The notes under the pieces were generated by a model, which saw only the letters and a program-made list of their open reading frames with translations, was not told the DNA's origin and made no database searches. The position numbers were made by a program, and so were the translations under genes. This document shows positions 31,810 through 32,530 of a stretch of 64,000 nt of DNA, piece by piece. The first letter of the stretch is position 1. The number at the start of each line of letters is the position of its first letter. This stretch comes from Escherichia phage vB_EcoM_DalCa: the sequence record NC_054908.1; one strand, given 5' to 3'.

Positions 31810-31861
31810 ACTTTGTGCAATCTTTGGAAAATAAAAAAGGACTCCCGAAGGAGTCCTCAAC

Positions 31862-32038
31862 TTATGCTTTCTGCTTACCAAAACGAGAAGCATCATCTCG
31901 AAGAACCGCACGTGCTCGGCGCATGATCTTCTCAACAGTTTGATTGATACGAGAGTTCGACCCACGCTTGTAACCAGCGCGTTTAGAATCACCAACTTTC
32001 TTTTCAACTGCTTTCTTTGCTTTAGCTTGTTTTGCCAT
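31862..32038 (-). CDS. Small highly basic protein (about 58 aa, MAKQAKAKKAVEKK...)
   Basis: Encoded on the minus strand (reverse complement reproduces the track protein although the track labels it +); ATG at about 32038 preceded by AAAAGAG. Confidence 0.5.
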   Translation of the reverse strand: MAKQAKAKKAVEKKVGDSKRAGYKRGSNSRINQTVEKIMRRARAVLRDDASRFGKQKA

Positions 32039-32281
32039 TATAAATTCTCTTTTAAATGAAAATGCAGGACTTATTGGCATTGCCTGCGCAAGCCCTCAAG
32101 GGGAACATAGGTTTTGTATATTTACCGACAGGATAACCATAAACCCGTCATCATTCACATTCAAGAGGTACACCGTAAAACTGCCGGGGTCTTAAAACTA
32201 TAATGATTCGCAAATCATTAATCAGACAGTTCGACGGCTCCTCGATTTTAGCTCACACTAAGGCAGTGAATCTCCAATAAA

Positions 32282-32530
32282 TTACTTCAATGTTACCACA
32301 AAGTGACGAACTGCTTTTCGTGCAGCAGAAGCCAGAGGCTTAGCATATTTAAGTTCATCTTTTTCCTGAAGCTCAGCAGCTAATGCAGTTTGAGCAGGAT
32401 TCAGATGTTTGAAATAACGCAGGATTTCAAGAGCTTCGGCTTCAACATCAATAGATGCGCCATAGTTTTCGTGACCATTATTCCATGCGTTTCGTTGCAG
32501 TTCAAGAGCGTGTTGTAATTGTTTAATCAT
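32282..32530 (-). CDS. rIII: RIII lysis-inhibition accessory protein
   Basis: 82 aa, same length as T4 RIII; adjacent to gene 31; TATAAATA about 150 bp upstream. Confidence 0.8.
   Translation of the reverse strand: MIKQLQHALELQRNAWNNGHENYGASIDVEAEALEILRYFKHLNPAQTALAAELQEKDELKYAKPLASAARKAVRHFVVTLK

Follow-up and report, generated by a model that had tools for sequence, protein, structure and literature searches.

The 243 nucleotides (nt) that separate the genes rIII and 30.9 of Escherichia phage vB_EcoM_DalCa (NC_054908.1) very probably specify a functional structured RNA, read in the same sense as both genes. The interval occupies positions 32039-32281 (minus strand), from the rIII stop codon to the 30.9 start codon, of the 64,000-nt stretch that was analyzed as a whole and that we refer to as the window; this is a T4/RB14-type genome, the region being 99.6% identical to RB14 and 99% identical to T4, and in the T4 record AF158101 the equivalent interval of 244 nt carries no annotation. 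In transcript order the RNA consists of a short 5' leader, a long irregular hairpin (H1), a junction and a 3' block of three smaller hairpins (H2 to H4) that leads into the 30.9 Shine-Dalgarno sequence. With modest confidence, we favor a reading in which this is a modular RNA within the rIII-30.9 message, the 3' half of which would act in cis as the leader of 30.9, while H1 would serve as an intercistronic processing or stabilizing hairpin.

Conservation of the interval and absence of a protein gene

The interval was singled out by an original prediction, made from the letters of the window alone, as an unusually long gap of about 240 bp without a convincing open reading frame (ORF) between rIII and a basic ORF of 58 amino acids (aa), that of 30.9. 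Its limits had been placed correctly, and the gap is unusual indeed: 32081-32281 is the longest stretch in the 64 kb without an ORF of at least 40 aa on either strand, stop codons occur in all three sense frames, and no ORF of more than 29 codons lies wholly inside the gap. The further description of the gap as GC-richer holds only weakly (39.9% for the gap versus 36.2% for the window); the two motifs quoted for it, CTGCCGGGGTC and GCCTGCGCAAGCCCTCAAGGGG, are located at 32181 and 32082.

Alignment with T4-like phages shows that the gap is conserved across relatives, and 769 phage records match it. Between the window and RB69 (Mosigvirus), nucleotide identity is 86% in rIII and 88% in gene 31, and it rises to 95% in the 3' block and 100% in H1; for JS10 (Dhakavirus) the corresponding values are 84% in rIII, 74% in 30.9, 89% in the 3' block and 98% in H1. 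The flanking genes show the usual excess of changes at third codon positions. Within the gap, single-base insertions and deletions separate close relatives (GACG-GG/GACGAGG, CCU-GUC/CCUGGUC and CC-AAAACC/CCAAAAACC), and because these 1-nt indels break the ORFs that depositors have annotated there (68 aa in T2; 60 and 36 aa in Pinarejo), we conclude that the gap holds no conserved protein gene. The original prediction had envisaged the converse, namely a protein-coding gene in relatives that is frameshifted in the window, and the alignments speak otherwise: the ORFs of T2, Pinarejo and others are themselves broken by 1-nt indels in their nearest relatives. The comparisons thus indicate that the interval is under purifying selection and is neither a neutral spacer nor a conserved protein gene.

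Small ORFs have been annotated in the homologous gaps of several phages, for instance in T2 (PV648363, CDS0269), Pinarejo (CDS0215/0216), phage 132 (132_221) and COW86c (COW86c_228), and on the opposite strand in A73 (A73_157) and KP185 (UNY41295), and old T4 entries carried an 'ORF D' of 97 aa (11.1 kDa) over the gap. Lying within structured RNA on one strand or the other, and without conservation in close relatives, the annotated small ORFs are probably spurious.

H1, a hairpin held by compensatory changes

H1 is an irregular hairpin of 79 nt (32165-32243, minus strand) supported by covariation and by a covariance model. Its helices are P1 (GAGG/CCUC), P2 (GCCGU/ACGGU), P3 (AACUGUC/GGCAGUU) and P4 (UAAUGAUU-UGCG-AAUCAUUA), and its internal loops, UGAU and UAGUUUUAAGACCCC, are conserved. 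P4, the apical helix (32201-32221, minus strand), has 8 pairs, 4 of them with compensatory changes. It includes the short hairpin AATGATT-cgca-AATCATT (32202-32219) that the original prediction had picked out, which turns out to be the tip of H1 and a real part of the conserved structure.

Eighteen distinct H1 sequences from Tequatro-, Mosig- and Dhakavirus, Vequintavirinae and Kuravirus were aligned. The consensus has 25 pairs in four stacked helices; standard pairs occupy 98.2% of the 450 sequence-by-pair cells, and 12 of the 25 pairs show compensatory changes, which are drawn from four phage lineages. None of 500 shuffled controls reached the observed compensation, a significance that is overstated because the sequences are related. 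When the 3' partners were slid by 1-3 columns, pairing was 28-63% and the number of compensatory pairs 0-2, and this slid control, together with the fact that different lineages compensate at different pairs, argues that the H1 signal is real.

The pairing also identifies the strand. Alignment columns 11-86 and 17-80 are invariant G-U pairs and columns 25-72 frequently form U-G, and since a plus-strand RNA would have C-A mismatches there, the RNA is the gene-sense transcript. All H1 copies are co-oriented with the adjacent genes or tRNAs. The H1 covariance model finds a single copy in the window (32157-32248, 117 bits) and none in the tRNA/rnaC/rnaD region of T4 or at distant Tevenvirinae loci. 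With its 25 pairs and small loops H1 has the architecture of an RNase III hairpin, that is, irregular, of at least about 20 bp and intercistronic.

The leader and H1 are both missing from phages of the ECp13 type (locus L008, 899-1017), in which the gap is 119 nt, and Gelderlandvirus CF-SP2 (locus L024, 630-677) has kept the leader and carries a truncated H1 that scores 24.5 bits with the H1 model.

A block of hairpins joined to gene 30.9

Between H1 and 30.9 lies a second set of structures. H2 (32127-32149, minus strand) is a hairpin of the form GACGGG-uuuaugguuau-CCUGUC, the base of which covaries across lineages (AU:7 UA:2 GC:1; CG:8 UA:2). It is followed by a near-invariant A/U-rich single strand, G(G/U)UAAAUAUnCAAAACC (32110-32126, minus strand), that is kept in all Tevenvirinae genera examined as well as in Vequintavirinae A5-4 and LTH01, and then by H3 (32093-32103, minus strand), a hairpin CCC(C)-UUGA-GGG with a conserved CUU behind it, for which the support is conservation because its stem is invariant.

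H4 (32064-32087, minus strand), GCAGG-caaugccaauaagu-CCUGC, is the GCAGG...CCTGC hairpin of the original prediction, and as was noticed then it is followed on the minus strand by the U-rich tail AUUUUCAUUU (32054-32063; 7 U in 10). A hairpin at this position is kept in every genus, with stems GCGGG/CCUGC at locus L013, AACUGG/CCAGUU in CF-SP2, GGGAGC/GCUCCC in Karam-, Moon-, Jiaoda- and Muldoonvirus and GAGAGGU/ACCUCUC in COW86c; since the hairpin is found everywhere and the letters of its stem are wholly different between lineages, it is the structure, and not the sequence, that is conserved. The U-tract behind it degrades to AUGUAUUUCUCC or AAUUAUUACC outside the T4-like genera. H4 and its U-run are no canonical intrinsic terminator: the pair is not called by a consensus scan and has a stem of 5 bp and a loop of 14 nt.

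The remainder of the tail region (32039-32063, minus strand) contains the 30.9 Shine-Dalgarno sequence AAGAG (32047-32051), which a weak AUUUUC/GAGAAU hairpin could cover, and a comparable pairing, UCUCC/GGAAGA, could form in distant genera. As a modeled feature, a hairpin covering the Shine-Dalgarno sequence in the leader is suggestive only.

Jiaoda-, Kanagawa-, Karam-, Moon- and Muldoonvirus and an Erwinia phage share the order of rIII, a gap of roughly 260-370 nt and 30.9. These distant genera have no H1, but they do have H2, the A/U-rich strand and an H4-position hairpin just upstream of 30.9, and H3 as well, except that it is missing in the Erwinia phage COW86c. Structured RNA comprising H2, the A/U-rich strand and H4 therefore stands consistently upstream of 30.9 in at least 8 Tevenvirinae genera, and the shortest natural gap, the 119 nt of ECp13, retains exactly H2-H4. 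This conservation of H2-H4 beside 30.9 favors a leader role for the 3' half.

Leader, junction and module M

The 5' leader (32244-32281, minus strand) directly follows the rIII stop codon and contains the 13-mer TTTATTGGAGATT (32269-32281), a GGAG (32272-32275) and a small hairpin, CACUgccuuAGUG (32256-32268), all on the minus strand. Tequatrovirus, Gelderlandvirus and some Dhakavirus-like contigs have it; RB69 and JS10 do not. Because these two phages lack the leader, a long-range helix that joins it to the H3/H4 region in the minimum-free-energy fold is not general. By eye, TTCACTGCC...AGCTAA in the leader is like the type I-F CRISPR repeat; this candidate was rejected, the stem not being preserved and no match to an Rfam CRISPR-DR family being found.

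The junction of H1 and H2 (32150-32164, minus strand) is where relatives carry insertions, at about 32156/32157. There is no insert in T4 or in the window, about 45 nt in T2 and RB69, and about 155 nt, including a further module that we call M, in JS10, Pinarejo and others. The insert of about 45 nt, UACUAUCAYGCGUCAGAAAAGNGUUAUCUGUNUAAGUCNUGG, is carried by T2 (locus L006) and RB69 (L004) and at loci L011, L012, L014-L017, L019, L022 and L023.

Module M is 137 nt long (GCGGCAAGUGCAUGC...CAACAGAUAAGAGC) and is found in 404 records of at least 8 genera at 86-100% identity; it is absent from T4 and from the window. The fold obtained from eight diverse copies is a closed domain of several helices with 44 predicted pairs; compensatory changes are seen at 14 of these, and a GNRA-type hairpin within the domain changes from UCGA/UCGA to CCGA/UCGG to CUGA/UCAG. 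No Rfam family matches M. Its place varies, the order being H2-M-H3-H4 in Jiaoda- and Kanagawavirus and M-H2-H3-H4 in Karam- and Moonvirus, and from this varying content and order we take the site to be a small island of independently folding RNA modules. M lies at about 790-945 in JS10 (locus L005) and about 825-975 in Pinarejo (L007), and the copies from Jiaoda-, Kanagawa-, Karam-, Moon- and Muldoonvirus and the Erwinia phage are at loci L085-L090. We note that the modular build, module M and the presence of H1 in unrelated phage families are visible only by comparison with relatives.

H1 in unrelated phages

The distribution of H1 indicates that it is horizontally spread among unrelated E. 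coli phages. In Vequintavirinae W70, A73, A5-4 and LTH01 a sigma-70-like promoter precedes it by about 150 nt, and the stretch contains no protein gene. This operon consists, in order, of an uncharacterized RNA of about 140 nt, H1 (with or without H2), a tRNA, a tRNA-Met and a clear homologue of the T4 stable RNA D (rnaD); the first of the tRNAs is missed by ARAGORN and scores 35.8 bits with the Rfam tRNA model. H2 accompanies H1 in A5-4 and LTH01, and just before the first tRNA the T4-type AAGAGAAUUUA is kept, which argues that the transferred unit spanned the sequence from H1 to the Shine-Dalgarno region. The operon is at 538-1140 in A5-4 (locus L032), at 440-990 in W70 (locus L025) and also at locus L033.

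In Kuravirus (about 28 genomes), H1 follows the stop codon of ORF23 and is itself followed by a strong intrinsic terminator, shortly before the gene for the terminase large subunit; examples are phage 172-1 (locus L026, 1505-1645) and loci L080 and L034. In Kuravirus KBNP1711 and EP335 the match to the query is confined to its initial 27 nt, before H1, and these genomes appear to be without it. In neither Kuravirus nor Vequintavirinae is an ORF kept on either strand of H1.

About ten genomes of Justusliebigvirus, for example that of arall, contain the whole T4-type gap inside a tRNA cluster. In arall (locus L027, 1467-1810) the T4-derived segment is about 332 bp and consists of the whole gap plus an ATGG, to which the final 27 codons of rIII are joined in frame to yield a mini-RIII ORF of 28 aa. 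The segment is flanked by a 13-bp direct repeat of TTTATTGGAGATT, exactly at the 5' end of tRNA-Gln; in most relatives the site is empty and holds a single 13-mer. Judging by the permuted order, a circularized or tandemly duplicated T4 fragment seems to have integrated via the 13 bp of homology.

Pattern scans for H1 in IMG/VR, metagenome contigs and 185k bacterial genomes gave true members only among T4-like phages and Kuravirus; candidates were filtered with the H1 covariance model, which all others failed. A BLAST search of E. coli genomes and plasmids with the gap and with its longest variant (H1+M+H2-H4) returned no match. The contexts in which H1 is found in other phages favor a processed or independent RNA for the 5' half.

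Genes and transcription signals around the interval

The local genes cd, 31.2, 31.1, 31, rIII, 30.9 and 30.8 are all on the minus strand. The upstream gene of the same transcription unit is rIII (32282-32530, minus strand; 82 aa), the T4-type lysis-inhibition gene, and the downstream gene, 30.9 (31862-32038, minus strand), encodes a very basic protein of 58 aa predicted to form a helical hairpin. Behind 30.9 stands a strong intrinsic terminator (31837-31858, minus strand; 9-bp stem, loop of 4 and T-run) that is annotated as such in phage Aplg8 and is likely the 3' end of the rIII-30.9 message; in a consensus scan it is the sole terminator of the unit. A consensus scan of the gap for promoters found none, and on the sense strand no convincing early, MotA-dependent or late box could be recognized by eye. 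Expression of rIII involves early, middle and late promoters (PMC9409239), and from these promoters and the sole terminator after 30.9 we infer that the gap is made throughout infection within the rIII-30.9 message.

An early-promoter-like site (31807-31779; TTTACA-17-TAGTAT with TG) lies between the 30.9 terminator and 30.8. On the plus strand, TATAAATT (32039-32046) agrees with 7 of the 8 positions of the T4 late-promoter box; it is directed into the gap in antisense. Since it overlaps the start of 30.9 and is not kept in Dhakavirus, it is probably fortuitous.

Homologues of gp30.9 number about 1000 records and fall in a PHROG of unknown function. The protein has no match in Pfam and no relative among PDB sequences, and its single-sequence AlphaFold model, a helical hairpin with a predicted template modeling score (pTM) of 0.35, has no match by Foldseek. 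In HP3.1, AV113, Shinka, NBEco003 and OMNI12, among others, gp30.9 (58-59 aa) or the gap is annotated as '1,4-alpha-glucan (glycogen) branching enzyme, GH-13-type', a label that cannot be right because the protein has only 58-59 aa.

Searches for known RNA classes and DNA sites

A covariance search of Rfam, suggested as a check with the original prediction, matched no family to the gap: in Rfam 15, none reached its gathering threshold in the window region, five homologous loci, the gap alone, an M-carrying Moonvirus gap or a Gelderlandvirus gap. Weak matches to Atu_C8 and Phe_leader are merely the 30.9 terminator hairpin, and one to the DUF2815 RNA (RF03084) was likewise rejected, its score of 14.5 bits (E = 5) lying below the gathering threshold of 41.2 and the match not recurring in the Gelderlandvirus homologue. 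ARAGORN found no tRNA in six homologous loci, and the Rfam tRNA model found none in the gap. The T4 RNA C/D family was dismissed as well, as there is no similarity in sequence or structure and the window copy lies between two protein genes; only the Vequintavirinae and Justusliebigvirus copies lie in tRNA or stable-RNA operons.

Literature searches by gene names, topic and exact sequence strings found no description of the element, the older T4 literature being only partly searchable. The markers of the T4 replication origins are oriA near soc, oriC near rI.-1 and oriE near repEA, with oriF at uvsY and oriG at gene 34, and none of these maps to rIII/30.9 (PMC3016281).

Proposed function and alternatives

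Three roles had been put forward with the original prediction: a structured 3' untranslated region (UTR) or processing site for rIII, a small RNA, or a regulatory leader for the downstream protein. The comparisons bear out a conserved, structured, non-coding minus-strand RNA with covariation, and they do not themselves choose among the three. In the reading that we favor, the rIII-30.9 message would span the gap and end at the terminator at 31837-31858, and the 3' half would set the level of 30.9 translation, or the processing or partial termination of the bicistronic message, or both. That H2-H4 are tied to 30.9 in every genus fits such a cis-acting leader, and feedback on it by the very basic gp30.9 is a possible and attractive idea. 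H1 would be an autonomous module that is gained, lost and moved between phages and that, within an mRNA, would act as an intercistronic processing or stabilizing hairpin.

Several observations weigh against a cis-acting leader with a processing hairpin. The single-sequence folding energy does not reach significance (z of -1.3 for the minus and -0.6 for the plus strand), and with single-sequence folding so unremarkable the case beyond chance rests on the comparison with relatives. Few substitutions underlie H2 and H3, the Shine-Dalgarno hairpin is thermodynamically weak with few informative substitutions, and the automatic cross-genus consensus of the 3' block is weak as well (-5.6 kcal/mol), because the length of H4 varies. 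H1 also occurs away from 30.9, in tRNA operons and in a 3' UTR, and so does H2 in A5-4 and LTH01; such settings suit an RNA that is self-contained or acts in trans no less than they suit a cis element. Some lineages have dropped a module and kept 30.9 (H1 is gone from ECp13, M from T4), and RNA-binding homology of gp30.9 is not detectable with Pfam, PDB or Foldseek.

It is possible, although we think it the less probable course, that H1, perhaps with H2-H4, is excised as a stable small RNA that acts in trans, for instance by sequestering a host protein or a defense factor as a sponge or decoy, its position between rIII and 30.9 being incidental. The promoter-driven, purely non-coding operon that H1 shares with two tRNAs and an rnaD homologue in Vequintavirinae would suit such an RNA, as would the Kuravirus arrangement of stop codon, H1 and terminator, which is the layout of a 3'-UTR-derived small RNA. 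The sporadic horizontal distribution over four unrelated virulent coliphage groups, with the structure held by compensatory changes, points the same way, as does the presence of H1 and module M in some T4-like phages and their absence from others, and the GGAG (a RegB-type motif) after the rIII stop codon together with H4 and its U-run could delimit an RNA of about 220 nt. Yet in the window the element has no consensus promoter or terminator at its borders, H2-H4 are always joined to 30.9 in the Tevenvirinae, no target can be proposed, and the abundant small stable RNAs known from T4 map only to the tRNA region. That H1 and module M are self-contained, folded 'accessory RNAs' which virulent phages of enterobacteria carry and which, as decoy, sponge or inhibitor, target a host factor or an anti-phage defense in trans, we consider rather unlikely; this would explain the exchange among four unrelated coliphage lineages, the company of tRNAs and RNA D and the patchy presence in close relatives. 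Improbable, in our view, is a riboswitch-like sensor formed by M and H2-H4 that controls 30.9 by attenuation at H4 and the U-run or by masking of the Shine-Dalgarno sequence, the window having a reduced version without M. A complex, conserved multi-helix domain does stand upstream of the same small gene in about 400 genomes, and a hairpin, a U-rich run and a weak Shine-Dalgarno hairpin directly precede the start codon. Against this, M is dispensable, being absent from T4 and the window while 30.9 and H2-H4 persist; the module order varies between genera and the U-run is not conserved outside the T4-like genera, no Rfam riboswitch matches and 30.9 gives no hint of a ligand.

Two further explanations would deny the RNA altogether. 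One is that the conservation stems from a site in the DNA itself, for example an origin of replication, a promoter, or a target for recombination or homing; for this one could cite the 13-bp TTTATTGGAGATT as the recombination homology for insertion into the Justusliebigvirus tRNA-Gln, the plus-strand match of TATAAATT at 32039 to 7 of 8 positions of the late-promoter box, and the character of the region as an indel hotspot. We hold this to be very unlikely: the strand-specific G-U pairs and the compensatory changes are signatures of RNA, the promoter scan of the gap is empty, Dhakavirus does not retain TATAAATT, none of the contexts has a nuclease gene next to the element, and the known T4 origins lie elsewhere (PMC3016281). 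Still less credible is a decayed protein gene, the frameshifted remnant of the ORFs of T2, Pinarejo and phage 132 or of the old 97-aa 'ORF D'. Those annotations (68 aa in T2, 60 and 36 aa in Pinarejo, 97 aa in older T4 entries) and the synonymous look of the few differences between T2 and RB69 inside the 45-nt insert would speak for it. The T2 ORF, though, has a TTG start and is broken by 1-nt indels in L019, RB69 and T4; the window has stops in every frame, substitutions in the helices are compensatory and include G-U intermediates, no H1 ORF survives in Kuravirus or Vequintavirinae, and the non-coding blocks are more conserved than real genes.

Comparison with known RNAs

If the 3' half is a leader, parallels in layout are autoregulatory leaders, such as ribosomal-protein leaders and the T4 RegA, gp32 and gp43 operators. 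As in these, a structured leader stands upstream of a gene, here for a small basic protein, and the Shine-Dalgarno sequence lies in or beside a weak predicted hairpin, a likeness of architecture only; unlike the products of such systems, gp30.9 has no recognizable RNA-binding domain or structural relative, and no Rfam leader matches. The DUF2815 RNA (RF03084), a short hairpin plus Shine-Dalgarno sequence upstream of a small phage gene, resembles H4 and the tail and aligns up to the AUG, although the element is not a member of that family.

For H1, the RNase III hairpins of the T7 early mRNA (R1.1 type) offer a similar architecture, and no more than that: they too are irregular, about 60-80 nt long, provided with internal loops and intercistronic. 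Cleavage at a hairpin of this type could leave a protective 3' structure on the upstream mRNA. Unlike the T7 hairpins, H1 has unusually conserved internal-loop sequences, and T4 is not known to require RNase III for mRNA maturation. The put-type antitermination RNAs of HK022 are stem-loops upstream of terminators, as is H1 in Kuravirus and as is the T4 gap with respect to the terminator downstream of 30.9; this again is a likeness of architecture only, such a position is not specific to the put type, and Rfam has no put-type model.

The gap element appears to be an orphan structured phage RNA, absent from Rfam 15 and from the searchable literature, and it is notable for its presence in T4, its modular build and its transfer from one phage family to another. 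On the genome map of T4, the reference lytic phage, this interval is left blank; an uncharted RNA would thus be placed in a model in which deletions, reporters and RNA mapping are routine. The basic protein gp30.9 gains a testable regulatory context, and spurious ORF calls are flagged in many deposited genomes.

Alike in being phage-encoded structured RNAs of about 80-140 nt are rnaC and rnaD of T4 ('species 1 and 2'), which are co-transcribed with other genes and then processed, and in Vequintavirinae H1 shares a non-coding operon with tRNAs and an rnaD homologue. Unlike rnaC and rnaD, to which it has no similarity in sequence or structure, the T4-type element lies inside an mRNA between protein genes and outside the tRNA cluster. 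The presence of H1 in Vequintavirinae, Kuravirus and Justusliebigvirus, and the company of tRNAs and RNA D in which it is found, suggests that phages share a pool of RNA modules whose functions are directed at the host.

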